Part shown: piece by piece, positions 6,597 to 58,637 of the stretch | Layout of the letters: the number at the start of each line of letters is the position of its first letter | Numbering within the stretch: the first letter of the stretch is position 1 | Assembly (NCBI GenBank): GCA_945865725.1 | Contig: CAMBEO010000003.1 | Location: 5,111 to 69,110, forward strand | Direction of reading: 5' to 3' | DNA from: Thermoflexus hugenholtzii JAD2 | Lineage (GTDB): Bacteria > Chloroflexota > UBA11872 > UBA12225 | Length of the DNA stretch: 64,000 nt | Made by a program: the position numbers and the translations under genes | Notes under the pieces: model-generated | Databases searched by the model: none | The model's input: only the letters and a program-made list of their open reading frames with translations | What the model was told of the DNA's origin: nothing

Positions 6597-6643
6597 GGTC
6601 GGGTCCTCTGCCTGGGTACGGGGGAGCGGGACTTGGCTACCTG

Positions 6644-7336: not shown

Positions 7337-7449
7337 CCACTTCGTGGAATACCAGCGCGCATCATCGACCGCCCGGCGCCACCCCGTCAGCTCCGTCCGC
7401 CGGTCGGAGGCCCGGTGCACCGGGAACCGCGCCGGATAGTAGGGGACGG

Positions 7450-11153: not shown

Positions 11154-14100
11154 TTAGCCACGGCGGTACATCGACCGGTCGACCTTCACGCCGAACTCTT
11201 CCTGCTTCTTCGCGAGCTCCTTGTTGACGTCGTAGATCGCGTCTTCAAGCGCCTCGCGAGGGTTCATGCCCTGCAGGACCACCCGGTTCCACGCGTTCAG
11301 CACGTGTCGGCCGGTGAAGTACCCGCCCAGCACGACTGGTGGCTCCCGGAACCACTTCCACTGCTCCATGATGTTGGCGATGTCGCGCCGGGGCCACGGC
11401 AGTTCTTGCAGCGCCTCGAGGTTGGCGGTGTTCCAGCGGGCCTCGACCCCGATCAGGGCCTCCAGCTCGCCGCCGAAGCGCCGTTGCGCGTCCTTCGAGG
11501 ACCACCACTTGACGAACTCCCAACTTTCCGCCTTGTGCCTCGACTGCTCGAAGATCACCATGCTGGCGCCGGTGCCCCCGCTCGCGCGGATGATCGTCCC
11601 GTCCGGCACGGGCTTGCCGGTCTGGGTGTCGATGCACGGCACGATCGTCCCCATCGAGGTCGTCGACCCGCACCGGTGGCCCGGCATCGGGCGCATCTCC
11701 CACCGCCCGGTCAGCTCCGGCGCCGCGACCGACAAGCTGATGTAGATGCCGTACCCGGCCACGCCGATCGGCTGCTCGCCCGTCCGCATGCGCGTGAAGA
11801 AGTTCGCCTCGCGCGGGATCTTGTAGTTGCTGTAGAGGTCCGTCCACTCCTGGAAGCCCACGAGCGACTCCGGCGAGTCGAGCGCCGACCGGCAGGAGCC
11901 ATCCGTGCAACGGTAGTACTGCCCGCCGTTCTGGAACAGGAACGGCGTGAACCCGACCGCACCCTCGGTCACGGCAACGCCCGTCGGCGGCGGGTAGTAG
12001 AAGTCGAGGCCGGCCTGCTGCAATTTCAGCAGCGCCTCGTACAGGTCATCCCACGTGTCGGGCGGCTTGATCCCCAGTTCCGAAAGGATGTCCGTCCGGT
12101 AGAACGTCATCGCGAAGTCCTGGGTCTCCGGGATCGCCCAGTTCCCCTCCTCCAGCGTGAACGGGACCCGGTACCGGAAGGGGACCAGCGCGCCGTCCCG
12201 GAAGCGCTTCGCGACTTGCGGGTAGTCCGCGAACGTGGAGAGGTTCACCAGCCCCTTGCGGACGGCGAAGTCGACCGGCAGCTGGCTGGGCACGCCGACG
12301 GCGACGTCCGGCGCCTCGCCCGCGGTCGTCGCCAGGAGCAGGACGGACCCCGCGCCTTCCCCGAGGCTTGCGGGCGGGATGACGTGCACGTTCACCTTGA
12401 TCCCGGAGTTCGGCGTGAAGTCGTCCTCGATCATGTCCTTCATGATCTGGCCCCACTCCGTGCCGCGCCCGACCCACACGTCCAGCACGACCTCCTTGGA
12501 ATCCTTGGAGTAACTGCTGCCGAGGCCGGTGTAGTCGCGGGTGAACGACGACAGGAAGGTGGCGAGGCTGGCGTACGCCATCTCGAACATGTTGGCCTGC
12601 ACGCGTGGCAAGGGCGACCGCGCCGAGTGCACCATGAGCCACTCAACCGCGAGCGGATGGTTCTGCATGTGTAGCAGCCAACTGGCAAGGATGCCCTGGC
12701 TACGCAGGAAGTCCTCGAGCAGGCGGTGGATCTCGGCAGGCTTCTCGATCATGCGCTCGAGTTGCGCGCCGACCACCCGGAAGGCCGACGACGCGTCGTT
12801 CTTCGCCCGCCCGATCTCCTCCATGCGCGTCGCCTGCAAGTCCAGGCGGTCGCGCAGCTTGACGAGGCGAGGCACGAGGGTGGGGATCTTCTCGTGAAGG
12901 TCCCACTCCATGTTCACGTCGGGTTGCGAGCCGGTGACCATGAGCATCTCGCGGCTCATCTGGCTCATTTCCGAGAGCATCTGGTCAAGCTCGCGCATGG
13001 TCTCGGACATGAACCCGAGCGTCACCTCCATCTGGATGACGTTCGTGCCCTTTTTCAAGTGGAACAGGTAGGGCGCGCCGTCCGAGGACTGCTCCTCGCG
13101 GATCGTCTCGAGGCGCCAGTCGCGCTCCATCCGGAACAGGATCGCCCGCATCTCCCGGAACGGCATCTCGCCATTGACCCGGAGCGCCCGCAGGCGCGGG
13201 CGTCGTCCCGCCCAACCCTGCCAGATGTTGAAGCTCATCTGGTAGAGGCCCTCCTCGGGGACCTCCACCTCCCACCGCACCCATTGGCCAGGCAGGCGCC
13301 ACCGCCACCAGCCGAACGAGTTCAACGCGAACAGGCCGTCCGCGTACGGGCTTGCCAGCGCGTCGAAGTTCACCTCGCCACGGACGGTCGGGTCGGACTT
13401 GGTGAGCGTCTTCTCGGCCTCGACGCGAATGCCTTGCTTCAGCTCGACCTCGCGGAGGCCCTGTGCCTTCCATGCCTTGAGGCGGTCCGCGTACGTCGGC
13501 ACCACGACCGGGGAATGGATCGTGATGGACCCGAGGGCGATCGTCTCGCGCACGGTCTGGAAGCGAAGCACCTGCACGCCCTTTTCGAACAGGAACTGGA
13601 ACGGCGCGTCATACCTGCCGTCCGCGTCCTCGATCGTCTTGGTCTCCCAGCGCGGCGCTTCAATCTGGGGGGGGCGGACGTCGTTCCCCTGGTTGTCCTT
13701 CTTCGCCTCGGCGGAATCGCGCCAGACGCGATGGAAGACGACCCGTTTCGCTTCCCGGAACGGCAACTTTCCATTGATAAGGAGGTCACGTTGTACGGAT
13801 GCGCGCTTTCCCTTGATCGGGAAGTATTCGACCGTGATTTCGTAGAGGCCCGTCTCCGGGACGGGAACCTTCCACTCGACCCACCCGTCATCCTCCGCCC
13901 AGATGAGGGTCGGGCCTTTCCTGCCCTCGAAGTCCTGCTCGACGCGCAAGCCCTCGTTGCCCCCGCTGGCGGCGAAATCGACGGCGCGGATCTCGATGCG
14001 CTGGCCGGTAGTCGCCTTGTGCTGACGGTCCCAGTCGGCCTTCTGGTCCTGGTAGATCGGCTGGCCCGCGAGGTCCTCGGGAAGCATGTCCTCGAAGAGC

Positions 14101-14348
14101 TTGTCGCTCGGCGGGCGAGCCGCTGGCGCGGCCGGCGGCTGGGCCTGCGACGTCAGCTTGCCTCCCGGCGCCGTGCCGTTCATCGCGGCCGCCCCACGGG
14201 CATCCACGAGCGGCGCCAGCGACGCGCCGACGATCACGATCGCCAGCGCACGGCGCACCCACCCGCTCGCGCGCGCCCCATGCCTCGCCCTTCGACCATG
14301 GATGGCCGAGGCAGCCTGAAGCGCGTCCACGGTGCCGGAATCCTGCAT
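11154..14348 (-). CDS. Giant extracellular solute-binding protein (ABC, family 1) with N-terminal tandem carbohydrate-binding-like beta-sandwich repeats and a coiled-coil segment
   Basis: ATG at 14348 with GGGAGA 6 nt upstream, then a signal/TM segment. Two paralogous repeats (WVEWKVPVPETGLYEITVEYFPIKG...LINGKLPFREAKR and WVRWEVEVPEEGLYQMSFNIWQG...RVNGEMPFREMRA). The C-terminal 450 aa resemble a family-1 SBP. Upstream 290 codons of the long ORF are antisense-like junk. Confidence 0.7.
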   Translation of the reverse strand: MQDSGTVDALQAASAIHGRRARHGARASGWVRRALAIVIVGASLAPLVDARGAAAMNGTAPGGKLTSQAQPPAAPAARPPSDKLFEDMLPEDLAGQPIYQDQKADWDRQHKATTGQRIEIRAVDFAASGGNEGLRVEQDFEGRKGPTLIWAEDDGWVEWKVPVPETGLYEITVEYFPIKGKRASVQRDLLINGKLPFREAKRVVFHRVWRDSAEAKKDNQGNDVRPPQIEAPRWETKTIEDADGRYDAPFQFLFEKGVQVLRFQTVRETIALGSITIHSPVVVPTYADRLKAWKAQGLREVELKQGIRVEAEKTLTKSDPTVRGEVNFDALASPYADGLFALNSFGWWRWRLPGQWVRWEVEVPEEGLYQMSFNIWQGWAGRRPRLRALRVNGEMPFREMRAILFRMERDWRLETIREEQSSDGAPYLFHLKKGTNVIQMEVTLGFMSETMRELDQMLSEMSQMSREMLMVTGSQPDVNMEWDLHEKIPTLVPRLVKLRDRLDLQATRMEEIGRAKNDASSAFRVVGAQLERMIEKPAEIHRLLEDFLRSQGILASWLLHMQNHPLAVEWLMVHSARSPLPRVQANMFEMAYASLATFLSSFTRDYTGLGSSYSKDSKEVVLDVWVGRGTEWGQIMKDMIEDDFTPNSGIKVNVHVIPPASLGEGAGSVLLLATTAGEAPDVAVGVPSQLPVDFAVRKGLVNLSTFADYPQVAKRFRDGALVPFRYRVPFTLEEGNWAIPETQDFAMTFYRTDILSELGIKPPDTWDDLYEALLKLQQAGLDFYYPPPTGVAVTEGAVGFTPFLFQNGGQYYRCTDGSCRSALDSPESLVGFQEWTDLYSNYKIPREANFFTRMRTGEQPIGVAGYGIYISLSVAAPELTGRWEMRPMPGHRCGSTTSMGTIVPCIDTQTGKPVPDGTIIRASGGTGASMVIFEQSRHKAESWEFVKWWSSKDAQRRFGGELEALIGVEARWNTANLEALQELPWPRRDIANIMEQWKWFREPPVVLGGYFTGRHVLNAWNRVVLQGMNPREALEDAIYDVNKELAKKQEEFGVKVDRSMYRRG

Positions 14349-14612
14349 CGCGTCTCCCTGCGGGCGCGGAGCCCCGTACCGGGCGCTCCCCTGGACCTTG
14401 TCCCTGCCCGCTGCAAGCGGCGCCGAGTATAGCGGTGCCCGCCGATGCGCAAGGCGTGACCGCGCGTTCCCGCCCCGCGGCGAACGGGTCGCTATACTGG
14501 CCGTTGGCGCGAATCTATGCGTTCGTGGGCCGGCGTGCAACCTTTCGACGGGACGGCACGCCACCCCGAAACCTCCCTGCCTCGCCGGTCGGCGTTCGCC
14601 CAAGGGGGCGCG

Positions 14613-15185
14613 ATGGTACTTAGCGATCGGTCCATCCGCGCGCTCCTCGCCTCCGGGCGACTGGCCATCGACCCGTTCGACCCTGGCTCCATCCAGCCGT
14701 CGAGCATCGACTTGCGCCTTGACGCGCGCTTCCGCGTGTTCCGCAGCACGCGGTACACGCATATCGACCCGCGCGCCGACCAACCCGACCTTACCGAGCT
14801 GCTGGTCCTGGACGACGCGCACCCGTTCGTCCTGCAGCCCGGGCAGTTCTGCCTCGGCAACACGTTCGAGGAGCTCAGCCTCCCGGACGACGTGGTCGGG
14901 CGCCTCGAGGGCAAGAGCTCGCTCGGCCGTCTCGGTCTCGTCATCCACTCGACGGCCGGGTATGTCGACCCTGGCTTCCGCGGGCGGCTCACGCTCGAAC
15001 TGAGCAACGCCGCCGCCCTTCCCATCCTCCTCTACCCCGGCATGAAGATCGGCCAGCTGTCGCTGATCCAGATGACGACGCCTGCCGACAGCCCGTACGG
15101 GTCCCGGTCCCTCGGCAGCAAGTACCAGGGGCAGGACGAGCCCACCGCAAGTCGCAGCCACCTCGACTTCCGCGACCTTCCCTGA
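14613..15185 (+). CDS. dcd: dCTP deaminase
   Basis: ATG with AGGGGG 5 nt upstream. Full-length similarity to dCTP deaminase (…QPSSIDLRL…[14 protein letters not shown]…). Confidence 0.9.
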
Positions 15186-15246
15186 CGTGGTCGGGCGCCT
15201 CGAGGGCCAGGCCGGCACGGCGCCGACCCTGCGCTATAGTCGGTCA

Positions 15247-17961: not shown

Positions 17962-19329
17962 TCACCCCAGGCCGCGGACGAGCGCGTTGAACTGGTCCCC
18001 GCGATCGAACTCGTTCCTGAACATCCCGAACGAGGCGCAACCCGGCGACAGCAGGACGGCGCCCCCAGCGACCGCAAGCGCTGACGCCTGGGTGACCGCG
18101 TCCGCGAGCCGTGCGTGCCGGCCACGCACCAGGCCGTGCCCGGCGTGTGCCACGAGCCGATCCGTCGCGGAACCCTCGAGCAGTACGACGTCGGTGACCG
18201 GGCCTCCCGTTCGCGACAGCGCGGCGCCAAGTCCCGCGAACTCAAGGCCCTTGTCGGCTCCCCCCGCGATCAGCACGATCGGCCCCGGTATCGACGCGAG
18301 GGCCGCCAATGTCGCGTCAGGGGTCGTTGCCGCCGTGTCGTTCACGTACCGGACGCCCCGGAGCACGCGCACGAGCTCCTGCCGGTAGGCGACCCCGCCG
18401 AACGTGCGCATCGTGGCCTCAATCGCCTCCTCGCTGGCACCGACCTCCCGAGCGAGCGTTGCCGCGCAGCGCGCGTTCGCGAGGTTGTGCGGCCCGGCCC
18501 AGCCGCGGGCGTTGTCAGTGAAGCCGGGCACGGGCGTCTCCGGTCCGAACCACGCCACGGCGCCCTGCACGCCGCGAGCAAGGTCGACACTCCGTTCGTC
18601 CTCCCGGTTCAACGCCACCACGCCTTCCTTGCCCTGGTACATGAAGGCCCGTCGTTTCGCGTCGACGTATGCCTCCATCGACACGTACCGGTTCAGGTGG
18701 TCTGGCATCAGATTTGTCACCGCCGTCACTCGCGGGCTTTGTTCGATCGCGTCAAGACCCTCCAACTGGAAGCTGGAAAGTTCCAATACGACCGTCGTGC
18801 CCGTCCCGATCCGGTCGATCTGGTCGAGCGCCGAAATGCGAAGGTTTCCGGCGACGACCACGTCCACGCCAGCCGCGCGCAGGATCTCCCCGACAAGGGT
18901 CGTCGTCGTCGTCTTCCCCTTCGTCCCGGTAATCCCGATCACATGGCGCGACGGGCAGGCGACGAGGAAGAGCGACATCTCCATGTGAACGGGGATTCCT
19001 CGCGCCTGCGCCTCGCGCACGAACGGCGATTCACGAGGCACTGCGGGGTTCCGCACGACCAGGTCGACGCCGTCGAGGTCCGCCTCGTCGTGGCGACCGA
19101 GGGTGTACGCGACGTCGAGTCCTCGGAGCGACTCCAGCGAACCTTGGAGGCGATCAGAGGGTTGCAGGTCAGTGACGCGCACCGAGGCGCCTGACCGGGC
19201 GAGGAAGCGCGCCACCCCAGCACCGCCCCCATGGACCCCTAGCCCGACGACAAGGGCGCGCTTGCCGGCAAACGTCTGCGAAGCGGGCGGCTTGGCGCGT
19301 TGGCCCGGCGCATCCGCGATCAGGTCCAT
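17962..19329 (-). CDS. murD: UDP-N-acetylmuramoyl-L-alanine--D-glutamate ligase
   Basis: N-terminal Rossmann segment (GKRALVVGLGVHGGG), ATP-binding motif GITGTKGKTTTT, and C-terminal Mur-ligase domain ending SPGCASFGMFRNEFDRG. ATG at 19329 with GGGAGG upstream. Confidence 0.85.
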   Translation of the reverse strand: MDLIADAPGQRAKPPASQTFAGKRALVVGLGVHGGGAGVARFLARSGASVRVTDLQPSDRLQGSLESLRGLDVAYTLGRHDEADLDGVDLVVRNPAVPRESPFVREAQARGIPVHMEMSLFLVACPSRHVIGITGTKGKTTTTTLVGEILRAAGVDVVVAGNLRISALDQIDRIGTGTTVVLELSSFQLEGLDAIEQSPRVTAVTNLMPDHLNRYVSMEAYVDAKRRAFMYQGKEGVVALNREDERSVDLARGVQGAVAWFGPETPVPGFTDNARGWAGPHNLANARCAATLAREVGASEEAIEATMRTFGGVAYRQELVRVLRGVRYVNDTAATTPDATLAALASIPGPIVLIAGGADKGLEFAGLGAALSRTGGPVTDVVLLEGSATDRLVAHAGHGLVRGRHARLADAVTQASALAVAGGAVLLSPGCASFGMFRNEFDRGDQFNALVRGLG

Positions 19330-19548
19330 CAGGCCTCCCGGCCGCCGCATCCCGACCGCCGGACGTCGTGGGTCTCCCTGGAGGCCGGTCGATGGGAGAC
19401 TTGCGCCATTCAGGTGCGAGACGGCAGTCCCTGGCCCGACACGCCGTCGGCGCGGGAGTATACTTCTACCCCTGCGCGCGACATTGGCGCGACTGCCCGC
19501 GTGGCGCCGCCAAGGTGACGCGCAACTCGACGGGGCCGCATCGCCAGC

Positions 19549-37632: not shown

Positions 37633-39114
37633 CTACGCCCCGAGCAACTTGAGCGCCCGGTCGAGGACAGGGTCCTTCCCGGCCGCAAGTTCCTCGCGGG
37701 AGACTTCGACAACCTCGTCCGGCTCGAGACCGACCCGGTTCAGCTCTTCTCCCGCCGGACCAGACAGCTTCCGGGTCGTGACCGACACCGCCGACCCGTC
37801 AGGCAACCCGTACCGCGACCCGATGCCGACGCATCCGGCGGTCCGCGTCCCGACGACCTTGCCGATCCCGTACCGCTTCACGGCGGCACTGAACGCCTCG
37901 GCCGCGGACGCGGTGCTGTCGCTGACGAGGACCACGAGGGGCACCTTCAGGCCCGCGTACGATCCGTCGGGTCCAAGCGCGATCCGGTCGCCCTTCCGAC
38001 TGGTTTCGTACCCGAATGGCCCGTCCTTCAGGAACTTGCTCAGGAACGACAGGAACACGTTCAGGTCGCCCCCCCCGTTCGTGCGCAAGTCCAGGATCAC
38101 GCCTTTCGTCGCTTTCGCCTGCAGCGACCCGATCGCCGCCAATGCCTGGTCTTGGGCGGTAGCCGAGAACCCGTTCACGCGCACGAGCGCCACGCGGTCG
38201 CCTCCGACCAGCCGGGACTCGACGACCTTCTCGCTGATCGCGACCCGGGCGATTGACACGGTCCGGGGCGCCTTCTCGCCAGGGTGCTGGATGGCGACCT
38301 GCACCGACGTCCCTTCCTTGCCCCGGATGCGGGCGGCGATGTCGTCCAGGTCCAGGTCGACCAGCGATGTTCCATCGACGGCCATGAGCGCATCCCCGGG
38401 CTTGATCCCCGCCTTGCCCGCGGACCCGCCGGGGATCAATTCGTACACGATCGCCGGTTCGCCCTTCTTCCGCTTGATGCGTACGCCGATGCCCGCGAAG
38501 CGCAACACGCCTTCCTGGCGCTGGTTCGCCTCCGCGAGTTGCGCGGGAGTCGAGAAGCCGGTGTGGCAGTCACCGATCGCCTTCACCATCGCGCGGATCG
38601 CGGCGTATGCGGCGACGGAATGCGCGGTCGAGGGGCCGGGCGTGGTTCGCGACGCCTCGAGATAGGCCGCCTCAAACGCGTCGATGTCAGCCTGGGGATC
38701 GACACCCCTGATGACGGGCGCCGGGACCGTGGCCCCGCTCGTGGCGGTTTCGAACCCGTTCCACGCCGCGCGCAGGAGCGCTCCGGGATCGAGCGGTTCG
38801 ACGTACTCGTTGGCGAACAGCAGCCACGCGTTCGCGATGAGCTGGACGCCCTGTTCCGCCAGGATCGGCTTCAGGTTCGCGTCGACCGCCGTCGTAGGGG
38901 CGACGCTCGGCGCCGGCACGACCGTGGGACTGCCGGCGACGTCCGACGAAATTCTGGGGGTGAACGCGTCCGCCGGCGTGCAGCCTGCGATGACAGTGGC
39001 GGCAACGCCAATGGCAACGATGGCTCGCGCCACCGTTTCGCGCAAGTGCCAAGGCGTTCGCGCTTCTGGGGCTCGCCTCGTGAACGCGGATAGCCCGTGT
39101 CGGAACGGCATTGC
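37633..39114 (-). CDS. S41 family C-terminal processing peptidase
   Basis: PDZ domain (GIKPGDALMAVDG) and S41 catalytic region (LVVLVSDSTASAAEAFSAAVKRYGIGKVVGTRTAG). N-terminal lipoprotein-like signal. Confidence 0.8.
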   Translation of the reverse strand, partial: AMPFRHGLSAFTRRAPEARTPWHLRETVARAIVAIGVAATVIAGCTPADAFTPRISSDVAGSPTVVPAPSVAPTTAVDANLKPILAEQGVQLIANAWLLFANEYVEPLDPGALLRAAWNGFETATSGATVPAPVIRGVDPQADIDAFEAAYLEASRTTPGPSTAHSVAAYAAIRAMVKAIGDCHTGFSTPAQLAEANQRQEGVLRFAGIGVRIKRKKGEPAIVYELIPGGSAGKAGIKPGDALMAVDGTSLVDLDLDDIAARIRGKEGTSVQVAIQHPGEKAPRTVSIARVAISEKVVESRLVGGDRVALVRVNGFSATAQDQALAAIGSLQAKATKGVILDLRTNGGGDLNVFLSFLSKFLKDGPFGYETSRKGDRIALGPDGSYAGLKVPLVVLVSDSTASAAEAFSAAVKRYGIGKVVGTRTAGCVGIGSRYGLPDGSAVSVTTRKLSGPAGEELNRVGLEPDEVVEVSREELAAGKDPVLDRALKLLGA

Positions 39115-39183
39115 CGGGATCATACCGGCGGGGAAGTCAGTTCCAGCAATGGGGCGACGGCTGTCGCCCCGGCCCATTCGGGA

Positions 39184-39297
39184 CTACCCGCTACGCCGGC
39201 CGCCGGTCGTCGCCTGGCGGGCGGTGCGTTCCTTCAGGCGGGCCTTCTCACGGGTCTTGCGGCGCTTCACTCGGGCCACGCGTCGACGCTTGTTCAT
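39184..39297 (-). CDS. Small, extremely basic 37-aa ORF (MNKRRRVARVKRRKTREKARLKERTARQATTGGRRSG)
   Basis: Hand-translated ATG...TAG ORF below the 60-aa cutoff of the ORF track; intergenic between the S41 peptidase gene and the serine hydrolase gene. Composition is ribosomal-protein-like. No family assigned. Confidence 0.3.
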   Translation of the reverse strand: MNKRRRVARVKRRKTREKARLKERTARQATTGGRRSG

Positions 39298-39338
39298 CGT
39301 CGTGGATTGTACAGTGCGCCCGCCACGTTTCAGGAACG

Positions 39339-40436
39339 ATGACCGGTACCAGCGCCCCCAAGGGATCGCGCGGCTTCGACGCCCTCGACCGCATCGTCGA
39401 TCGCGCGGTGGCCGGAGGCATCTCCGCCGTCGCTGGCGCCGTCGGTGATCGTGACGGTACCCGCTGGCGGCGCTTGGCCGGGCACGTCCGCGCGCAACCA
39501 GGAGCTGCGCCTCTCTCCCCGGTGGATCGTTTCGACCTCGCTTCGCTGACGAAGGTGCTCGTCGCGATGCCCCTGGTCCTCCGCCTCGTCGAGTCAGGCG
39601 ACCTGCATCTCGGGAAAAAGGTTGCCGACCTCGTCCCGGAGTTTGCGGGTGACGGCAAGGGCGACATCACGGTGGCGCACTTGCTGACCCACGCCTCCGG
39701 ATTGCCGGCGCACGTGCCATTCTGGCGCGAACGCAGTGACGTGGCGTCGGTGCGCGCCCGTGTCCTCGCGACCCCTCTCGTCGCGCCACCCGCGACCGCG
39801 ATCACGTACTCCGACCTCGGCTACATGATCCTTGGGTTCCTCATCGAACGCATCCACGGACGGCCCCTCGATGAGGTTGCCCGGAAGGAGGCCTTCGCAC
39901 CCCTCGGCCTCGAAGGTGCGACCTTTCGCCCGAAGGACGCAGGCTTGCCCTACGTCGCAACTGAGGTCGTCGAGGAACGTGGTGGCCTTGTCGCGGGCGA
40001 GGTCCACGACGAGAACGCGATGGCGCTAGGCGGGATTGCCGGGCACGCCGGCCTGTTCGGGACGCTCGACGATGTCGTGCGGGTCGCGCGCTTCTGGGCC
40101 GGTGGGGGCACCACCACCGGCGCGCGATGGCTTTCTGGCGCGTCGATGGCCGCGGCGATGGCTGACCAGACCTCGAGCATCGACCCATCCGCCGCGCGGG
40201 GCCTGGCGTGGGTTCGAACCCCGAACCCGTTCGCGATCCCGAACGACCTTGCCTCCCCGCACGCCGTCAGCCACACCGGGTTCACCGGCACGTCAATCAT
40301 GGTCGACCCGACCTGGGGAACCTGGGCAGTCCTCCTGACCAACCGCGTGCACCCGACCCGACACGGCGACAGCCCGGCACGGATCCGCGAGACGCGCGCG
40401 ACCTTTCACGGCGCGGCTTGGGCAGCGCTTACGTAG
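39339..40436 (+). CDS. Serine hydrolase, beta-lactamase / PBP-like family
   Basis: SxxK motif (SLTK) near the N-terminus and class-C / DD-peptidase-like length. Confidence 0.8.
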   Translation: MTGTSAPKGSRGFDALDRIVDRAVAGGISAVAGAVGDRDGTRWRRLAGHVRAQPGAAPLSPVDRFDLASLTKVLVAMPLVLRLVESGDLHLGKKVADLVPEFAGDGKGDITVAHLLTHASGLPAHVPFWRERSDVASVRARVLATPLVAPPATAITYSDLGYMILGFLIERIHGRPLDEVARKEAFAPLGLEGATFRPKDAGLPYVATEVVEERGGLVAGEVHDENAMALGGIAGHAGLFGTLDDVVRVARFWAGGGTTTGARWLSGASMAAAMADQTSSIDPSAARGLAWVRTPNPFAIPNDLASPHAVSHTGFTGTSIMVDPTWGTWAVLLTNRVHPTRHGDSPARIRETRATFHGAAWAALT

Positions 40437-49892: not shown

Positions 49893-50269
49893 CGGGCCGC
49901 CTGACGTCGCGGCAGCGCACGGGCCAGGCCGGCGAGGCCATCGCCGCGACGTACGCGCGCCAGCGAGGGTGGCAGGTCCTCGAGTCGAACGTGCGCCTGC
50001 CTTCCGGAGAGATCGACCTCGTGGTCCGCGACGGCGACGAAATCGCCCTCGTCGAGGTGCGGACCCGGCATTCGGACGCGTTCGGCACCGGAGCCGAGAG
50101 CCTCACGACGCGCAAGCGTGCCCGGATGGCGGCCTGTGCGTTCGAGTACCTCCTCGCGCGGGCGATCGACCCGGACACGGCGCGATGGCGCGTCGACCTG
50201 GTCGCCATCGTCCTCGTCGCGGGAGGCACGCCCCGCGTGGAGCATCTTCCGCATGTCCTCGCCGGATAG
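49889..50269 (+). CDS. yraN: YraN/UPF0102 family endonuclease
   Basis: ATGA overlap with the rnhB stop. GEIDLVVRDGDEIALVEVRTR core. Confidence 0.75.
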   Translation: MTGRLTSRQRTGQAGEAIAATYARQRGWQVLESNVRLPSGEIDLVVRDGDEIALVEVRTRHSDAFGTGAESLTTRKRARMAACAFEYLLARAIDPDTARWRVDLVAIVLVAGGTPRVEHLPHVLAG

Positions 50270-50541
50270 CCCGGTGCCGGGCACGCGCGTCGTCCGACGT
50301 CGCCCTCGGGGGGTCAGCGGCGAGCGCCGGTGGTTCCTGACCGCGATTCGCGGCCAGTTGGCCGGCGCGCGGATCCTCGGCTACGTCGCGATAGCGGTCG
50401 CCATTGGCGCCGGGGCGTGGTGGATCATTGGCACTACCGGGTCACCGGTCGTTGGCGCGGGTTTCATCGCCCTTGGCGCCGTCCTCGGGGCCGCGATCTG
50501 GTCATTCGCCGGGTTGATGCGGATGATCGGCGGGGCACCTG

Positions 50542-53307
50542 TCAGCGGGCGGTTGCCTGCAGTCCCGCCTGGAGTACCGGTCGCGCCATCGGCGCCGCCG
50601 CTTCCGCACCCCACCCGCCGAACTCCCTGAGCACGACGACCGCGACGCGCGGCGCATCCAACGGGGCAATCCCGACAAACCATGCGTGGTCGGGGCGCCC
50701 GGGCACGCTCTGCCCCGTGCCGGTCTTGCCCCCGACCCGGACCCCCGTGATCGCCCCGGCTCCCGAGAAGCCGTCATCCACGGCCAGGCCCATCATCGCC
50801 CGAACCGCGCCCGCCGTCGCCGGGGTGACCGCGCGCCCCAGCGAGGCCGGATGAGTGCGCCGAACCGTCGCCACGCCCCCATCGACCTGCGCGACGACCT
50901 CCGCGACGATCCACGGGCGAGGCACGTCACCGTCCCGAGCGATCGTCGCGGCGATTACCGCCACTTGGAGTGGGGACAGGAGCAGCTCGCCCTGGCCGAA
51001 CGCGGTCGACGCCAGCAGCGACGGCGGCATCGGGCTGGTCCTCCCGACGCTCGTCGCACTGGTGTCGATCCCGAGGGGCAGGGCAGTGCCGATGCCAAAT
51101 CTCCCGGCGTAATCGCGCAGGCGCGCCTCGCCAATCTTTCCACCCACCTCGGCGAACACGACGTTCGAGGACCATGCAAACGCGCGCGCGAAGTCGAACG
51201 TCGGACGCGGCGGGCGCATCGCGTCGGTGACCCGGAACCCGTCGATGGTCACCTCACCCGTCGGGTCGCTGGTGATGGTTGCCAGCGTCATCACGCCCGA
51301 GTCGATCGCCGCGGCCGCCGTCACGACCTTGAAGGTGCTGCCCGGCACGTACAAGCCCTGCGCGGCCCGGTTCACCAGCGGCTTGGCCGGATCAGCGAGC
51401 AGCGACGACCACCGGGCGTCGATCCCCTCCACCGGCAGGGGCGGGTTGCTTGCCATCGCCAGCACGGCACCCGTTCGCGTGTCGAGGGCAATGGCGGCGC
51501 CAGCGGCGTCGCCGAGGGCCGCAGCCGCCGCGGCCTGCACGTCCGGGTCGATCGTCAAGCCCACGTTCGCCCCGCGACCGGGCAATCGCGCCACCTGCCG
51601 CACGAGGTCGCCGTAGGAGAGCGGCGCGCCCGTCCCCGTCAAGGCGGCGTCCTCGGCGCGTTCGACCCCCGAGGTCCCGTAGCGTGCCGACCGGTAGCCG
51701 ACGACATGCCCCAGCGATGGCACCAGCAGGTGACGCGTGCCGTCCGCTCGCGATTCGACGACGACGTTCCCGTGCCGGTCGACGATCTGCCCTCGCATCG
51801 CATGCCGGCCGTCCTGGGCGAGGCGCGGGTTCTGGGGCGCGGCCGCGAGCGCGCCCGACGCGACCGCCTGCCAGTACCCCGCGAACGCCGCGAGCACGCC
51901 GAAGAGTGCGAGGAATAGCGTCCCGAGGCTTCGCGCGTGCGCCCCCATCGCGCCTGGCGACCCGGTGGTGGCTGCCCCGGGACGATCGCCCGCTTCCTCG
52001 TGGGACGCACGCAAGAGCAGGCCCAGCAACAGCCACGACGCGAGCATCGACGATCCGCCATAGCTGACGAACGGCAGCGTCACGCCGGTCAGGGGGATCA
52101 GCCGCACGTTTCCGCCGACGATCGTCACCACCTGGAAGGCGATGACCGCGGCCAGCCCGGCGGCGAGCAGCTGCCGGAACGGGTCGCGCGCGCGCATGGC
52201 GATCCCAAGCCCAGAGGCGACGAGGACCGCGTACGCCAGGACCAGTGCAAGGCTTCCCGCCAGCCCGGCCTCCTCGGCGAAGGCCACGAACGGGTAGTCC
52301 GTGTGGGCCGCCGGCACGTAGAGCGGGTAGCCGTTCCCGAGGCCCCGACCCGCGATCCCTCCCGACGCCATCGCATACATCGCCTGCACGATCTGGTACG
52401 ACCGTCCCAGCGGATCGACCCACGGGTCAAGCCACACCTCCACCCGCAAGCGCACGTGCGCGAACAGGCGGAAGCAGGCGTACGCGCCGACCCCGAAGAC
52501 CGCGACCGATCCGACGACGTATCGCGCCCGGCCGATCGCGACGTGGAGCATCGCGAGGAAGGTGGCGTAAAAGAGCAGCGCCGACCCGAGGTCCCGTTGC
52601 ACCACGAGCAGGACCAGGCACCCGCCCCACATCGCGACGAGCGGGATGAGCCAGGCGATGGGCGGCACCGGCACGCCCCACAGGCGCGATGGCGCGACGA
52701 GCAGCATCGCCCGCTTCTCGGTCAGGTAGCCCGCGAGGAACAGGACGAGCACGATCTTGAGGAGCTCGCTCGGCTGGAACACGTAGCCCAGGAGGCCGAG
52801 CCAGAGGCGGTCACCGCTGCCGTTCAGGTCACGCCCGGCGACGAGCGTCAGGGCGACCAGGGCGATCCCGGCCACGAGGATCGCGTACTTGAAGCGCTCG
52901 AGGTGGCGGGTCTCCCATGGCCCGGCGGCGACCACGACGGCCCCGGTCGCCCCGAGCGCGACCCACGTCGCCTGCCTCGCGGCGGCGTCCGGTACCAGCC
53001 GGGTCACGATCACGATCCCGACGCCCACGAGGCACGCCACGACCGGGAACGTCACCTGGTCGCCCCGGTTCCCGGTTGCCACGAGCATCAGGTGGGTAAC
53101 CACCAGCGTCGCCCCGACCGCGTACGCGGGCCAGAAGCGCGCGTCGTCAAGTGCGCGTTCCCACGTCACGGCAAGCGTCGCTACCCCGAGGGCGAGCACC
53201 ACCAGCGCGACCGCGAGCAGCCCGGTCTCCGTCCACCGGGCCGCCGGCCGAACGACGGGCATCCATCCGGCACGTCGCACCTGCCTGCGAGGACCCTGCC
53301 CGATCAT
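50542..53307 (-). CDS. Fused SEDS glycosyltransferase (RodA/FtsW) and class B penicillin-binding protein (transpeptidase)
   Basis: N-terminal 470 aa: 10 TM helices with SEDS hallmarks (…FQPSELLKI…, …LIPLTGVTLPFVSYGGSSM). C-terminal 450 aa: PBP dimerisation region plus transpeptidase motifs STFK, SSN-like and KTGT. ATG at 53307 in an ATGA overlap with the fhaB stop. Confidence 0.85.
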   Translation of the reverse strand: MIGQGPRRQVRRAGWMPVVRPAARWTETGLLAVALVVLALGVATLAVTWERALDDARFWPAYAVGATLVVTHLMLVATGNRGDQVTFPVVACLVGVGIVIVTRLVPDAAARQATWVALGATGAVVVAAGPWETRHLERFKYAILVAGIALVALTLVAGRDLNGSGDRLWLGLLGYVFQPSELLKIVLVLFLAGYLTEKRAMLLVAPSRLWGVPVPPIAWLIPLVAMWGGCLVLLVVQRDLGSALLFYATFLAMLHVAIGRARYVVGSVAVFGVGAYACFRLFAHVRLRVEVWLDPWVDPLGRSYQIVQAMYAMASGGIAGRGLGNGYPLYVPAAHTDYPFVAFAEEAGLAGSLALVLAYAVLVASGLGIAMRARDPFRQLLAAGLAAVIAFQVVTIVGGNVRLIPLTGVTLPFVSYGGSSMLASWLLLGLLLRASHEEAGDRPGAATTGSPGAMGAHARSLGTLFLALFGVLAAFAGYWQAVASGALAAAPQNPRLAQDGRHAMRGQIVDRHGNVVVESRADGTRHLLVPSLGHVVGYRSARYGTSGVERAEDAALTGTGAPLSYGDLVRQVARLPGRGANVGLTIDPDVQAAAAAALGDAAGAAIALDTRTGAVLAMASNPPLPVEGIDARWSSLLADPAKPLVNRAAQGLYVPGSTFKVVTAAAAIDSGVMTLATITSDPTGEVTIDGFRVTDAMRPPRPTFDFARAFAWSSNVVFAEVGGKIGEARLRDYAGRFGIGTALPLGIDTSATSVGRTSPMPPSLLASTAFGQGELLLSPLQVAVIAATIARDGDVPRPWIVAEVVAQVDGGVATVRRTHPASLGRAVTPATAGAVRAMMGLAVDDGFSGAGAITGVRVGGKTGTGQSVPGRPDHAWFVGIAPLDAPRVAVVVLREFGGWGAEAAAPMARPVLQAGLQATAR

Positions 53308-53768
53308 CGCTGGCCCGCTGGCCGCGGCGCCAATGCCTCGTACCGCCACGCCAGGCCACCGGTCCGGATCGTGTCGCCATGGCGGAGGCGCACGGGCGCG
53401 TCGACCGACCGGCCGTTGACCGTCGTCCCGTTCCGGCTCCCGACGTCAGACACCTGCCAGCCATCGCCTGACGCCTCAAGGCGCAGGTGGTGTGACGACA
53501 CGCCGTCGTCGCGCACCACGATGTCGTTCGCCGGTCCGCGGCCGAGCGTGGAGGCACGTCCGACCAGCGGCACCGCGCGACCGGCGTCATCACCGCCATC
53601 GCCCGCCTCGACAAGCACGAGGCGCGACACCCCGCGCACGGGTGGGGCCGCGCCAGCGAGCGCCCGGCGAAGGGCGAGGAGCGCGACTGCGACGAACACG
53701 TACAGCGAGACCGCGAACGCCAGCCGCAGGATGAGGACGAGCGCTTCCGCGCCGGCCAGCCCGGTCAC
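53304..53768 (-). CDS. FhaB/FipA-like protein (N-terminal TM helix plus C-terminal FHA domain)
   Basis: FHA domain (…TLGRGPANDIVVRDDGVSSHHLRL…NGTTVNGRSVDAPVRLRHGDTIRTG). GTG at 53768 chosen because the upstream part of the ORF is repeat sequence. Confidence 0.55.
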   Translation of the reverse strand: MTGLAGAEALVLILRLAFAVSLYVFVAVALLALRRALAGAAPPVRGVSRLVLVEAGDGGDDAGRAVPLVGRASTLGRGPANDIVVRDDGVSSHHLRLEASGDGWQVSDVGSRNGTTVNGRSVDAPVRLRHGDTIRTGGLAWRYEALAPRPAGQR

Positions 53769-53789: not shown

Positions 53790-54010
53790 TGCCGGCCAGT
53801 GCCTCCCTCTCCCGTTGGTCCGCGGGCATCCTTGCCCGCCGGGGTGGGGTCTGGGTGCTTCCCTCTCCCGCCGCAGCGCGGGAGTGGATGGGGGGTGGCG
53901 CTTCCCTCTCCCGCCGCAGCGGGGGAGGGACTGAGGGTGGGGGCTAGGGACTGAGGGTGGGGGTCCTTCTCCCCTCTCTCGCCGCAGCGTTGGGGGGGCG
54001 CTTCTTGCGG
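53790..54010 (+). repeat. Mosaic repeat cluster (modules B-A-A plus 'GGGACTGAGGGTGGGGG' duplication)
   Basis: Lies between fhaB and fhaA inside the cell-division gene cluster. Confidence 0.9.
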
Positions 54011-54045: not shown

Positions 54046-54843
54046 TCACGATCGGTCGCCCTCACCGACCCGCATGGACACGTCACCGAACTGCACCAGG
54101 CCCCCCGGGCGCACGACCGCGTGTCGGACCCGTCGACCATCGACCACCGTCCCGTTTGTGCTGTCCAGGTCCTCGATCTCAAGCGCCGGCCCAGTGCTCG
54201 CCACTTCAGTCCAGGCGACCGTCGCGTGCCGTCGCGAGACGCTCCCATCCTCGAGCACGACGTGGCACGCGCGGTCCCGCCCGACGTCCAGGCGCGTGCC
54301 GCGGGCGACCTGCCACGTGGCACCATCGAGCGCCGAAAGCGTGAGGGATCCCGCCACTGGGGCTGGCACGCGGCCGCTTGCGGGGCGCGCCTCCACGACC
54401 GGCATCACGCGCGTCGCACCCGGTGCCTCGCCCGGCGGGGGCGCCTCGTGCGTCGCGACGACCGTCGCCCGGCCCGACGGGTGCCCCGCGGCGACGCCGA
54501 TGACCACGCGCGGCGCGCCGGCGAGGCGGTAGCCTCGACCCGACGCCTCCGTCTCGACAAACCGTTCGAACTCGCGTTGCAACGCGTCCACGATGCCCGC
54601 CATCGCGGCGTGGTCGGCCTCCGCCACGGTGACCTCGTACCGGTTCGGCGCGAGCGGGCGGTCCCCCGTCACCAGGATCGCGTCGTCCATCGCGACCACC
54701 AGTCGGCGCGCGATCTCCACTGGTTGGACGCGTTGGCCGGTCAGCCAGCGGGCGGGGCCCTCGACGGCCGCCTGCAGCCAGGATTCCAGTCTCGTGAGCG
54801 CGCTCACCCTTCCTGTCCCCTTCGCGCGTGCGCGCGTCCGCAC
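54046..54843 (-). CDS. FhaA-like protein (DUF3662 N-terminal domain plus C-terminal FHA domain)
   Basis: DUF3662-like N-terminus (…LESWLQAAVEG…VQPVEIARRL…) and an FHA domain (GRDRACHVVLEDGSVSRRHATV…NGTVVDGRRV). Confidence 0.7.
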   Translation of the reverse strand: MRTRARAKGTGRVSALTRLESWLQAAVEGPARWLTGQRVQPVEIARRLVVAMDDAILVTGDRPLAPNRYEVTVAEADHAAMAGIVDALQREFERFVETEASGRGYRLAGAPRVVIGVAAGHPSGRATVVATHEAPPPGEAPGATRVMPVVEARPASGRVPAPVAGSLTLSALDGATWQVARGTRLDVGRDRACHVVLEDGSVSRRHATVAWTEVASTGPALEIEDLDSTNGTVVDGRRVRHAVVRPGGLVQFGDVSMRVGEGDRS

Positions 54844-56029: not shown

Positions 56030-56160
56030 CTGGGTTGGCGCGGGCACGGGGACGGCCCCCTTCCATTGGCCGCAAGCGCCCCGCGCTGCGGCGGGAGAGG
56101 GAAGCACGGCCCCCACCTTAGTTACCCGAGTACTCGGTCCCTCCCCGCCAGGGGGGACGC
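56030..56160 (+). repeat. Mosaic repeat cluster (modules E'-G-A(rev)-D(rev))
   Basis: ATTGGCCGCAAGCGCCCCGCGCTGCGGCGGGAGAGGGAAGCAC and TTAGTTACCCGAGTACTCGGTCCCTCC. Overlaps the 3' end of glf. Confidence 0.85.
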
Positions 56161-57291: not shown

Positions 57292-57480
57292 CGACCACGG
57301 GACGGCCCCCACCCTCGTTATCCGAGTACTCGGTCCCTCCCCCGCTGCGGCGGGAGAGGGAAGCACCACCGCCCCTCCCCCGGGGGACGTGGTTGCCCGC
57401 GGACCAACGGGAGAGGGAAGCACTTCCCCCACCCTCAGTCCCTCCCCCGCTGCGGCGGGAGAGGGAAGCACCACCGCACG
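57292..57480 (+). repeat. Mosaic repeat cluster (reverse-orientation modules D-A-B-A)
   Basis: Three GGGAGAGGGAAGCAC cores in reverse orientation plus TTGCCCGCGGACCAACGGG. Overlaps the stop region of the glycosyltransferase. Confidence 0.9.
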
Positions 57481-58637
57481 TCCGCGAACGCGGCGTCCAT
57501 CTCGCGATCCATCGCGCCGGCGATCGCGTCCCACGAATGGGCGCGCAACACCGCTTCCTCGCGGTCGATCCGCGCGCGGCGCTGGTCAGGTTCCTCGACG
57601 AGTGCCCGGTCGATCGCATCGACAAACGCATCCGCATCACGCGCGATCGTCACGACCTCCCCAAAGGCGCGCACGACGTCCGTGACCGGCGTCGAGACGA
57701 TCGGACGGTGCGCGGCCATGTATTCGAGGGTCTTGGTGGGCGAGATGAATCGCGTCGCGTCGTTCAAGGCGAACGGCATCATGCAGGCGGCGAACTCCTT
57801 CAAGTAGGCGGGAAGCGTCGCGTATGCCTTCTGCCCGAGGTACGCGATGTTCGGCGCGACCGGCAAGTCCGCCCGGTCGACCTTGACCACTGGCCCGACC
57901 ATGGCCCATGTCACCCCCGGCCGGCGCGCCGCCACCTCGCGGAGGAGGTCGTAGTCGATCCGCTCGTCGATCACGCCGACGTAACCGACGCGTGGCACGG
58001 GCCAGGCCTCCAAGTCGCGTGGCACGGGCAAGGCTGGCGACAACGCCTTTCGGAAGTGGTCGACCTCGACGCCGCTCGAAAATGTCCGGACGCGTGCGTG
58101 GCGCCGTGCCTTCGCCTCACCAAGGCTCGCGCCACCAGCAAACGTGATCGCCGCCCGGCGAAGGAGCGACGCTTCACGGTCTGCCAGCCCCGCCGGCGCA
58201 AACCGGAACAGCGTCAACTCGTCCATCGCGTCGTACGCGATGCGAACGTTGCGCAACCGGTCGATGGCCGGCAGGAGCATCGGCGTGTAGAACCACGCGA
58301 CCGGATCCTCGAGGCCCTCGTCGTCAACGAGGGCCTCGACGAGGCGCGCGTACGCCGCGTCCAGGACGGGCCCGCCGCCGGGACCGGGATCCTGGCAGAC
58401 CGGACGCACGACCGTGACCCCGCTAGAGGCAGTCGCCCGGGGCGATCCGGATGGTGCGCGGTCGAACCGTAGCGCCGCGCCGTCCGGTGCCGGACCCGCC
58501 GCGTCCTCGAAGACTGGTTCCTCGATGAAGTAGACGCGCCGGTCGCGCGCAAACCTCGTCATCAACTGCTGGGGCCGTTGCCAGACGAAGTCCCAACGCA
58601 AGTGCGAGAAGCACAGGATCGGCGGACGCGGTCCCAC
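57435..58637 (-). CDS. Glycosyltransferase (GT1-like), putative galactofuranosyl transferase partner of glf
   Basis: GT-B fold-level similarity. GTG start with GGAG 7 nt upstream. The last 12 codons (…RWCFPLPPQRGRD) are encoded by the repeat cluster. Confidence 0.7.
   Translation of the reverse strand: MGPRPPILCFSHLRWDFVWQRPQQLMTRFARDRRVYFIEEPVFEDAAGPAPDGAALRFDRAPSGSPRATASSGVTVVRPVCQDPGPGGGPVLDAAYARLVEALVDDEGLEDPVAWFYTPMLLPAIDRLRNVRIAYDAMDELTLFRFAPAGLADREASLLRRAAITFAGGASLGEAKARRHARVRTFSSGVEVDHFRKALSPALPVPRDLEAWPVPRVGYVGVIDERIDYDLLREVAARRPGVTWAMVGPVVKVDRADLPVAPNIAYLGQKAYATLPAYLKEFAACMMPFALNDATRFISPTKTLEYMAAHRPIVSTPVTDVVRAFGEVVTIARDADAFVDAIDRALVEEPDQRRARIDREEAVLRAHSWDAIAGAMDREMDAAFADVRWCFPLPPQRGRD

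Follow-up and report, generated by a model that had tools for sequence, protein, structure and literature searches.

A probable natural in-frame fusion of rodA- and pbpA-type genes in a Thermoflexus-like Chloroflexota lineage

Introduction

The locus described here raises the question of whether a SEDS protein and a class B PBP (bPBP), a pair that an earlier note on this DNA took to be normally a two-protein complex, are genuinely encoded as one polypeptide and, if so, how the single gene arose. It lies in a stretch of 64,000 nucleotides (64 kb; the window) whose host is a Thermoflexus-like Chloroflexota lineage. Polymerase and cross-linker share one polypeptide in class A PBPs as well, which combine a GT51 glycosyltransferase and a transpeptidase in one chain; there the polymerase is the monotopic GT51 domain, unrelated to the polytopic SEDS module of the window protein.

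Two kinds of system invite comparison. The first is the Mycobacterium tuberculosis operon fhaA-fhaB-pstP-rodA-pbpA-pknA-pknB (PMC11898655), in which the genes of RodA (Rv0017c) and PbpA (Rv0016c), members of the two enzyme families found in the window protein, likewise come after fhaA and fhaB, rodA before pbpA. Nevertheless, they are two polypeptides there and one in the window, whose 64 kb contain no pstP, pknA or pknB. The second is the set of engineered RodA-linker-PBP2 fusions, which join the SEDS C-terminus to the bPBP N-terminus as the window protein does and are active both in vivo and in vitro (PMC6207328, PMC10449877). Their linkers have 8-12 residues and that of the window protein 11, but the latter fusion is natural. 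Here, we report that the rodA-type (SEDS) and pbpA-type (class B PBP) genes of this fhaA-fhaB-rodA-pbpA cluster very probably form a genuine, natural in-frame fusion, whose predicted product is a single-chain bifunctional peptidoglycan synthase.

Domain organization of the fused protein

The fused gene is complete and occupies 50542-53307 on the minus strand, with 921 codons followed by a stop at 50542-50544. Two starts are possible in this frame, a GTG at 53349 (935 aa) and an ATG at 53307 (921 aa); public assemblies carry the shorter form as their gene call, and its start codon shares the sequence ATGA with the stop of fhaB. The ORF list gives no internal stop along the 921-codon frame, the third-position GC is 0.88, and the SEDS and PBP tblastn segments share one stop-to-stop ORF in the window and in the four compared public contigs (L036-L039). 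On the opposite strand, the public assemblies carry a 125-aa ORF that overlaps the 3' end of the gene (about 50253-50630); it has no Pfam match and is probably spurious.

Pfam reports three domains only, with no GT51 domain among them. In the 935-aa numbering, these are PF01098 (FTSW_RODA_SPOVE) at 123-452 (243.7 bits against a cut-off of 26.4, E 3.8e-72), PF21922 (PBP_dimer_2) at 519-596 (34 bits against 27) and PF00905 (Transpeptidase) at 617-927 (196 bits against 22.1, E 1e-57). The uninterrupted frame and the three domains thus bear out the claim of the earlier note that both proteins form one polypeptide, and the domain matches and motif positions agree with the order that it gave, from SEDS through pedestal to a transpeptidase with STFK and KTGT. 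All residue numbers below refer to the 921-aa form.

The SEDS core spans residues 86-440 (51988-53052, minus strand) and was delimited by phmmer and by the helices of an AlphaFold2 (AF2) model, which has a pLDDT of 91.6 and a pTM of 0.83. Its ten membrane helices are residues 86-104, 106-128, 140-157, 179-203, 217-236, 240-258, 261-281, 339-372, 376-400 and 418-440. The earlier note had counted ten transmembrane helices for the protein; this number holds for the core, but the whole protein has 13 long hydrophobic helices in the model, namely the ten of the core, one bPBP anchor and two extra N-terminal helices at residues 25-77 (25-48 and 55-77; 53077-53235, minus strand) that are also seen as hydropathy peaks. 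A basic, cytoplasmic N-terminus precedes these two helices, and the alignment to Thermus thermophilus RodA begins only at residue 89, which corresponds to RodA residue 18. Among the motifs of the core, QPSE falls at residues 178-181, the sequence QPSELLK supplying the Glu and Lys of TM4 (E181 and K184), and HTD at residues 335-337. By counting along the alignment, D337 (codon at 52297-52299) falls on residue 255 of T. thermophilus RodA in 6BAR, an aspartate in the large extracellular loop before TM8 that we take to be the catalytic residue. E181 and D239 are invariant among 62 fused homologues, and D337 is conserved in 61 of them.

Between the modules lies a cytoplasmic linker, residues 441-451 (DRPGAATTGSP; 51955-51987, minus strand), followed by the bPBP membrane-anchor helix at residues 452-482 (51862-51954, minus strand), whose hydrophobic core, 461-482, is evident from hydropathy and the AF2 helix. 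Next comes a PBPA-type pedestal (dimerisation) domain at residues 505-582 (51562-51795, minus strand; PF21922), for which the closest solved structures come from M. tuberculosis (PBPA, 3LO7/3UN7) and Coriobacteriia (4JBF/4MNR). The D,D-transpeptidase domain (PF00905) spans residues 603-913 (50569-51501, minus strand) and carries S657-T-F-K660 (51328-51339), S713-S-N715 (51163-51171) and K861-T-G863 (50719-50727). When the whole model was compared with the PDB by Foldseek, the top 50 matches were confined to the periplasmic PBP part, and the transpeptidase domain reached target-normalised TM-scores of 0.86-0.91 against PBPA-type structures. Compared with M. tuberculosis PBPA (3LO7/3UN7), the periplasmic part gives an E-value of about 5e-48, an identity of 32-34% and a TM-score of about 0.86. 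Homologous fragments (the 4JBF series and 3UPN-3UPP) have been solved as β-lactam complexes, those of the 3UP* entries being titled acyl-enzyme complexes. A single anchor, a non-catalytic pedestal and a transpeptidase with SxxK, SxN and KTG together place this half in class B, and, as far as sequence can tell, all catalytic residues of the SEDS and transpeptidase modules are intact.

Relative to the two-chain RodA-PBP2 complexes (T. thermophilus 6PL5/6PL6 and Escherichia coli 8TJ3), the SEDS core is homologous and its catalytic Asp is conserved. Nevertheless, there are two differences. The pedestal is of the short PBPA type rather than the PBP2 type (PF03717), and the two extra N-terminal helices set the window protein apart from both these complexes and the engineered fusions.

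Genomic context

The fhaA-fhaB context claimed in the earlier note is borne out by Pfam and gene calls, both genes lying directly upstream on the same strand as the fusion. The fhaB-like gene (53304-53768, minus strand; public gene call) encodes 154 aa with an N-terminal membrane helix and an FHA domain (Pfam E 1.4e-18), and its TGA stop forms the ATGA overlap with the fusion start at 53304-53307. The NCBIfam model FhaB_Rv0019c gives this protein 75 bits, below its equivalog cut-off of 125. The fhaA gene (54046-54843, minus strand; public gene call) has FhaA_N (2.1e-22) and FHA (3.5e-16) domains; its longest ORF starts at a GTG and has 265 aa, while the public call starts at 54807 and has 253 aa.

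The same note had remarked on the lack of PP2C phosphatase and PASTA kinase genes in the window, and three approaches agree with it. tblastn with seeds from L040, the locus of a fused relative, returned no PP2C or Ser/Thr kinase at E<1e-5 in the 64 kb; HMMs built from 13-14 family members gave best E-values of 0.8-3 over the same stretch; and Pfam reported none among about 36 of its large ORFs. Nor was any PP2C, Hanks or PASTA kinase gene found around the genes of the two nearest relatives, in about 5 kb upstream and 10 kb downstream in L001 and 10 kb on each side in L002. PP2C and kinase genes are present in the clusters of L040, L005-L012, L016, L021 and L027, the order in L040 being Pkinase-FhaA-FhaB-PP2C-[fusion]-PASTA kinase. 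We infer that the kinase and phosphatase genes of the window's host must lie elsewhere in its genome. A phospho-Thr docking motif in the linker was also considered as a candidate and dropped: T447 and T448 are followed at +3 by Ser and Pro, which do not fit the usual FHA phospho-Thr preference, and the evidence counts neither way.

Distribution and origin of the fusion

The earlier note had implied that such a fusion is rare, and this did not hold. Of the top 120 database homologues 118 are fused in the same way, giving at least 118 fused homologue clusters, and among the 150 best representatives of clusters at 50% identity, about 130 reach a length of some 800 aa or more and span both halves. 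A survey published in 2025 (PMC12516126; Microlife) describes `bifunctional bPBP' chimeras with the domain order of the window protein, among them one of 931 aa from Senegalimassilia faecalis (FtsW/RodA/SpoVE, PBPA_dimer and TPase) and one of 947 aa from Rhodococcus jostii RHA1. These chimeras share with the window protein the succession of membrane GTase, pedestal and TPase and a length of about 900-950 aa, and the S. faecalis protein also has a PF21922 pedestal. The main text of this survey of 117 proteins gives no Chloroflexota chimera; the window differs in its Thermoflexus-like Chloroflexota host and in a fusion that apparently arose separately from the other chimeras, since its nearest relatives are split. 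Natural SEDS-bPBP fusions are thus already described and common, and the window protein is an apparently fairly recent example rather than a new kind of enzyme. In a listing of related loci, 20-30 representative genomes seemed to share the fusion; this candidate set was rejected, as the frames show two adjacent ORFs in nearly all of them. Most Chloroflexota fusions lack the transpeptidase active site, and some also carry a fused FhaB.

In the two nearest relatives, L001 and L002 (76-77% identity), rodA and pbpA are distinct genes whose stop and start overlap as ATGA. Their RodA ends `...HEEAVAAARA*' and their PbpA begins `MTGTGGGM...', where the window reads `...HEEAGDRPGAATTGSPGAM...'. In the nucleotide alignment of the junction, the window has a net gain of 4 nt and no stop, reading GCCACCACC against GCATGACC/GGATGACG. 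The net +4 nt and the loss of the stop would have put pbpA into the rodA frame. The junction lies at about 51961-51975 (AATTG), and the linker corresponds to the former C-terminal tail of RodA and N-terminal tail of PbpA. A neighbour-joining tree places the window protein with L001 and L002, both split, and intermingles fused with split forms. For each half, the closest representative among the 50% clusters is likewise a stand-alone protein (P0121, 470 aa, 66%; P0137, 463 aa, 58%). The tree and the junction make this look like a lineage-specific in-frame fusion, as opposed to a fission in L001 and L002. A scan of metagenome contigs for relatives at 77-100% identity, which might have dated the event, returned at best 62% over a fragment.

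We lean towards a broader reading of this history, in which the fusion is recent and independent, an ATGA overlap having turned into an in-frame linker while sisters at about 77% identity keep the genes separate. The event would then belong to a series repeated across Chloroflexota and neighbouring groups that also yielded FhaB-RodA-PbpA triple fusions and a large clade with dead transpeptidases.

Alternative explanations

The split of L001 and L002 exactly at the junction, where a frame change of +1 would suffice, also brings to mind an assembly or sequencing indel in the rodA/pbpA overlap that merged two real genes. This is very improbable. The junction difference is a net +4 nt in a locally diverged stretch, in which the TGA is replaced and not merely shifted; third-position GC remains high through the frame; and hundreds of relatives have the same fused architecture. 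Furthermore, an identical 921-aa protein occurs on eight contigs from at least four samples, all possibly of one population or study, and these come from two assembly pipelines, ENA (names k141_...) and Logan. Of the four compared contigs, L038 and L039 show 1-2 nt of difference from the window gene, all synonymous, as the translated protein stays identical. The frameshift or stop between the halves that the earlier note named as its refutation thus appears in none of the public contigs and, judged from them, the fusion is not an assembly artefact. Another doubt, that this copy is decaying or no longer catalytic, for example with a dead transpeptidase like those of many Chloroflexota fusions, draws on the 82 of 118 fused homologues that have lost SxxK, SxN and KTG; yet in the window protein all three motifs are retained, as are the E/D/D residues of the SEDS module, internal stops are absent and the coding GC3 is strong, which leaves this reading scarcely credible. 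It is somewhat easier to imagine that the fused ORF still yields two proteins, either because translation also starts internally, at M454, or because the linker is cleaved. M454 aligns with a second Met that is conserved where PbpA is a separate protein (Met8 in L001 and L002), confidence inside the AF2 model drops at the linker alone (pLDDT 61 for the block 441-450), and a minor fraction of an engineered RodA-PBP2 fusion is cleaved (PMC6207328). However, only a weak AGG can be read upstream of the M454 ATG, and the RodA part has no stop codon, so a full-length product must form anyway. Across 62 aligned fusions, the linker varies freely in sequence and ranges from 11 to 75 residues, as expected of a passive tether. 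Two products are therefore improbable, and a single chain is preferred.

The remaining alternative concerns the identity of the pair, which might be a fused division-specific FtsW-FtsI rather than an elongation or accessory RodA-PbpA. The SEDS half is marginally nearer to FtsW, both with the NCBIfam profiles (TIGR02614 ftsW, 246.3 bits; TIGR02210 rodA, 207.9 bits) and with phmmer (FtsW 8BH1, 1.3e-36; RodA 6BAR, 9.4e-35; RodA 6PL5, about 1e-34), although both profile scores are far under their equivalog cut-offs (337.5 and 336.7, respectively). The other half points away from division: the pedestal is of the PBPA type, and once the Coriobacteriia fragments (4JBF family) are set aside, the best solved match is to PBPA of M. 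tuberculosis rather than to FtsI. Likewise, the order fhaA-fhaB-(pstP)-rodA-pbpA-(pknB) matches the rodA/pbpA operon of actinobacteria (PMC11898655), and the flanks of the fusion lack dcw-cluster genes. An FtsW-FtsI pair is thus unlikely, if less so than the readings above, and a RodA-type protein is the best explanation, one that rests on synteny and pedestal type while the ftsW profile scores slightly higher.

Discussion

From what is known of the two families, the SEDS module would polymerise lipid II into glycan strands, using D337, and the periplasmic transpeptidase would cross-link stem peptides through S657. Since the SEDS module ends, and the bPBP begins, on the cytoplasmic side, the 11-residue linker can lead TM10 of the SEDS core directly into the anchor helix. 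By analogy with the two-chain RodA-PBP2 complexes, this helix is predicted to pack on the SEDS module, at TM8/TM9; in the model it is the high pTM that speaks for a defined arrangement. The fusion would set a fixed 1:1 ratio and make the complex permanent. Upstream, fhaB is probably coupled translationally to the fusion by the ATGA overlap, and regulation may involve the phospho-Thr-binding proteins FhaA and FhaB.

Taken alone, the window fusion matters little, as such fusions are already documented in nature, and engineered ones serve routinely in biochemistry and cryo-EM. It is, however, a clean example of an ATGA-coupled gene pair turning into one gene, with the unfused state kept in sister genomes. 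As a naturally single-chain synthase with intact catalytic residues, probably derived from a thermophile, it is possibly also a convenient structural and biochemical target. The loss of the transpeptidase site in most Chloroflexota fusions and the fusion to FhaB in some may be of more interest than the window gene itself. If the repeated series is real, it would be a natural experiment on the effects of covalently tethering the SEDS-bPBP pair and its FHA regulator, and would provide `Rosetta-stone' evidence, in which gene fusion is a sign of physical interaction, for a direct action of FhaB on the synthase.

The fusion gene and its product

A single open reading frame on the reverse strand of the window encodes both a SEDS (RodA/FtsW) module and a class B PBP (bPBP) module. 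Its stop lies at 50542-50544 and its start either at a GTG at 53349 (935 aa) or at an ATG at 53307 (921 aa). Because this ATG shares bases with the stop codon of the gene upstream (…CAG CGA TGA / ATG ATC…) and is also the start chosen by public gene calls, 921-aa numbering is adopted here, except for the Pfam domain bounds, which follow the 935-aa form: FTSW_RODA_SPOVE at residues 123-452 (243.7 bits), PBP_dimer_2 at 519-596 (34 bits) and Transpeptidase at 617-927 (196 bits). The single polypeptide proposed in the earlier note is thus borne out, with all three domains in one product. The third-position GC of the frame (0.88) is typical of real genes in this window of ~70% GC. An identical 921-aa protein occurs on eight contigs from at least four samples (ENA assemblies, contigs k141_..., and Logan assemblies); the nucleotide sequences of L036 and L037 equal that of the window, and L038 and L039 differ at one or two gene positions (195 and 2088), which are synonymous as the protein is unchanged. 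This recurrence with synonymous variants makes a shared assembly error a very unlikely source of the reading frame.

Using phmmer, residues 81-437 were aligned to FtsW (8BH1; 1.3e-36) and residues 89-435 to T. thermophilus RodA (6BAR; 9.4e-35). Counted along the latter alignment, D337 (HTD) corresponds to RodA residue 255, the catalytic Asp; E181 and K184 come from QPSELLK. An AlphaFold2 model built with a 62-sequence alignment (pLDDT 91.6, pTM 0.83) contains two N-terminal helices (residues 25-48 and 55-77) ahead of the start of RodA homology, ten helices forming the SEDS core (86-440), a short linker modelled at low confidence (DRPGAATTGSP, 441-451) and a long helix (452-482), the hydrophobic part of which (461-482) is the bPBP anchor. 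Hydropathy and the model therefore give 13 membrane helices instead of the ten counted in the earlier note, the finding of which is otherwise real and rightly interpreted. Taken with the known topology of the SEDS and bPBP families, the model predicts a self-consistent arrangement: a basic N-terminus inside, 12 helices returning the SEDS C-terminus inside, a cytoplasmic linker at 441-451 and a 13th helix that would place the PBP domains outside.

For the periplasmic part, matches were obtained to M. tuberculosis PBPA (3LO7/3UN7; E ~5e-48) and to two Coriobacteriia fragments, 4JBF and 4MNR (E ~3e-50), with Foldseek TM-scores to PBPA-type structures of 0.86-0.91 (normalised to target). The transpeptidase motifs are all kept: S657TFK660 and K861TG863, as previously noted, and also S713SN715. 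PDB entries 4JBF, 4N1X, 4RA7 and 4MNR, from Atopobium parvulum and Eggerthella lenta, are titled 'peptidoglycan glycosyltransferase' and are PBPA-type transpeptidase fragments. Since 4JBF and 4MNR can be aligned over their full length to the C-terminal half of P0043, a 961-aa natural fusion (536 bits), these entries are probably periplasmic pieces of natural SEDS-bPBP fusions.

Origin of the fusion

Many genomes returned by the related-locus search seemed to carry the same fused protein; a reading-frame check showed that almost all of L001-L035 encode the SEDS and PBP regions in separate, neighbouring ORFs. Both nearest relatives, at 76-77% identity, are split: L001 (uncultured Chloroflexi MAG) and L002 (uncultured Thermoflexus sp. 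MAG). Their RodA ends in '…LLRASHEEAV(A/S)…*' and their PbpA starts with 'MTG(T/S)(G/S)GGM…ALGTF…', the two genes being joined by a classic ATGA stop/start overlap. The window protein runs through this junction without a break ('…LLRASHEEAGDRPGAATTGSPGAMGAHARSLGTLF…'). By nucleotide alignment, the segment enclosed by conserved flanks changes from GCATGACC/GGATGACG in the relatives to GCCACCACC in the window, a net +4 nt. This eliminates the stop and exactly compensates for the overlap's +1 frame difference. The former PbpA N-terminal tail persists as the fusion linker.

In a representative library of 1.84 billion proteins, the closest match of each half stands alone: P0121 (470 aa, 66% to residues 456-920) for PBP and P0137 (463 aa, 58% to residues 31-454) for SEDS. 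Concatenating the two halves and building a neighbour-joining tree placed the window beside the split L001 and L002, with split and fused forms interleaved throughout. The most economical reading would be a lineage-specific fusion in the window lineage; fission in the sister lineage is formally admissible. In the same tree, L004 (JBLNDL010000013.1), labelled a Sphingomonadaceae MAG, groups with the Chloroflexi contig L003; its FhaA-FhaB-RodA-PbpA genes are 44-51% identical to those of the window, and it looks like a mis-binned contig.

Genomic surroundings

As the earlier note described, fhaA (54046-54843; FhaA_N and FHA) and an fhaB-like gene (53304-53768; membrane helix and FHA) lie upstream on the same strand according to Pfam/NCBIfam and public gene calls, the fhaB-like gene overlapping the fusion by ATGA. 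The reported absence of PP2C phosphatase and PASTA kinase genes also held: for PP2C and Hanks/PASTA kinases, tblastn of the whole window with proteins from the related locus L040 gave no match at E<1e-5, HMMs from 13-14 homologues against all six-frame ORFs gave a best E of 0.8-3 (noise), and Pfam found none among ~36 large ORFs. A second SEDS or bPBP was not found in the 64-kb window. The neighbours are housekeeping genes: an rpsP-KH-rimM-trmD-rplS block, a UPF0102 gene (YraN-type family), glf and a glycosyltransferase.

Several other features were observed. GC-rich intergenic repeats (53794-53981, 56054-56146 and 57302-57492; core CCCGCGCTGCGGCGGGAGAGGGAAGCAC, units of ~43-57 nt, both orientations) cluster between fhaA and fhaB and on both sides of glf, and look like REP-type palindromic elements. 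A MurD-like Mur ligase (17962-19350, reverse), an S41 (Ctp-type) PDZ peptidase (37633-39177, reverse) and a PF00144 beta-lactamase/D-Ala-D-Ala-carboxypeptidase-family protein (39111-40436, forward) are envelope-related and scattered, none adjoining the fusion. A 125-aa forward-strand gene of public assemblies (~50253-50630), which has no Pfam match and overlaps the last ~89 nt of the fusion gene, is probably a spurious high-GC ORF. Among ABC-transporter genes lie a 1020-aa DUF5696 protein (4278-7340, reverse) and a 1354-aa ORF (11154-15218, reverse), the only Pfam match of which is a C-terminal solute-binding domain, SBP_bac_1 (residues 920-1245); its true start may be much later.

Distribution and variation of the architecture

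The architecture recurs among database homologues. Same-order fusions make up 118 of the 120 top homologue clusters (90% identity), and ~130 of the best 150 representatives (50%-identity clusters) are at least ~800 aa long, with matches spanning both halves; named sources are mostly Anaerolineae, Dehalococcoidia, Thermoflexales, Promineifilum and 'Chloroflexota'. At the DNA level, L014, L040, L041 and L042 are true fusions. L040 (4974-13709; GCA_942493275.1, 2.5-Mb contig), which encodes the fused relative P0010 (41% identity), has the full cluster Pkinase-FhaA-FhaB-PP2C-[SEDS-bPBP fusion]-PASTA kinase, so the fusion also occurs with a complete phospho-signalling set. Many actinobacterial and clostridial loci carry FhaA-FhaB-PP2C-RodA-PbpA-PknB as separate genes; the Thermoflexus-like group (window, L001 and L002) has only FhaA-FhaB-RodA/PbpA.

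All three transpeptidase motifs are lost in 82 of 118 fused homologues (for example AQ/AP/HWG versus SK/SN/KTG) with the SEDS E/D/D residues kept, as in P0021, P0023, P0024, P0027, P0029, P0056, P0059, P0060 and P0089, among others. In most fusions found, from Chloroflexota where named, the PBP domain thus seems to be catalytically dead and is presumably retained for activation or scaffolding; the window protein is among the minority that is intact. We found no description of this loss in the literature cited here. Triple fusions of ~1055-1098 aa (P0013, P0016, P0017, P0020 and P0022; L041, 3587-6757) place an FhaB-like membrane helix and FHA domain ahead of SEDS and bPBP, that of L041 following a gene with only an FhaA_N domain. 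Given the ATGA overlap of fhaB and fusion in the window, one further frame change would yield this form. The triple fusions suggest that FhaB acts directly on the synthase.

Discussion

Natural and engineered chimeras provide comparators. A 2025 survey of 'bifunctional bPBP' proteins gives an InterPro count of 117, including a Senegalimassilia faecalis chimera (931 aa) with a PBPA_dimer pedestal, the same type as in the window fusion, and an R. jostii chimera (947 aa) ordered GTase, pedestal, TPase (PMC12516126). Engineered RodA-(GGGS)3-PBP2 and RodA-TSGSGSGS-PBP2 are functional and served biochemistry and cryo-EM, and a SEDS-bPBP fusion was reported to function in B. subtilis sporulation (PMC6207328, PMC10449877). 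The Mycobacteriales operon is fhaA-fhaB-pstP-rodA-pbpA-pknA-pknB (PMC11898655).

The analysis shows a single ORF, intact catalytic motifs in both modules and a confident single-chain model; the following mechanism is drawn from family knowledge. The SEDS module would polymerise lipid II and the bPBP module would cross-link the glycan product, activating SEDS allosterically via the anchor helix and pedestal; fusion would fix the stoichiometry at 1:1 and make the complex permanent. FhaA and FhaB would bind phospho-Thr targets and may couple the synthase to Ser/Thr kinases whose genes lie elsewhere. The window fusion belongs to an already described, numerically large class; specific to this locus are a cluster that lacks the phosphatase and kinase genes and a fusion that can be traced clearly to an ATGA overlap, the sister genomes being unfused.
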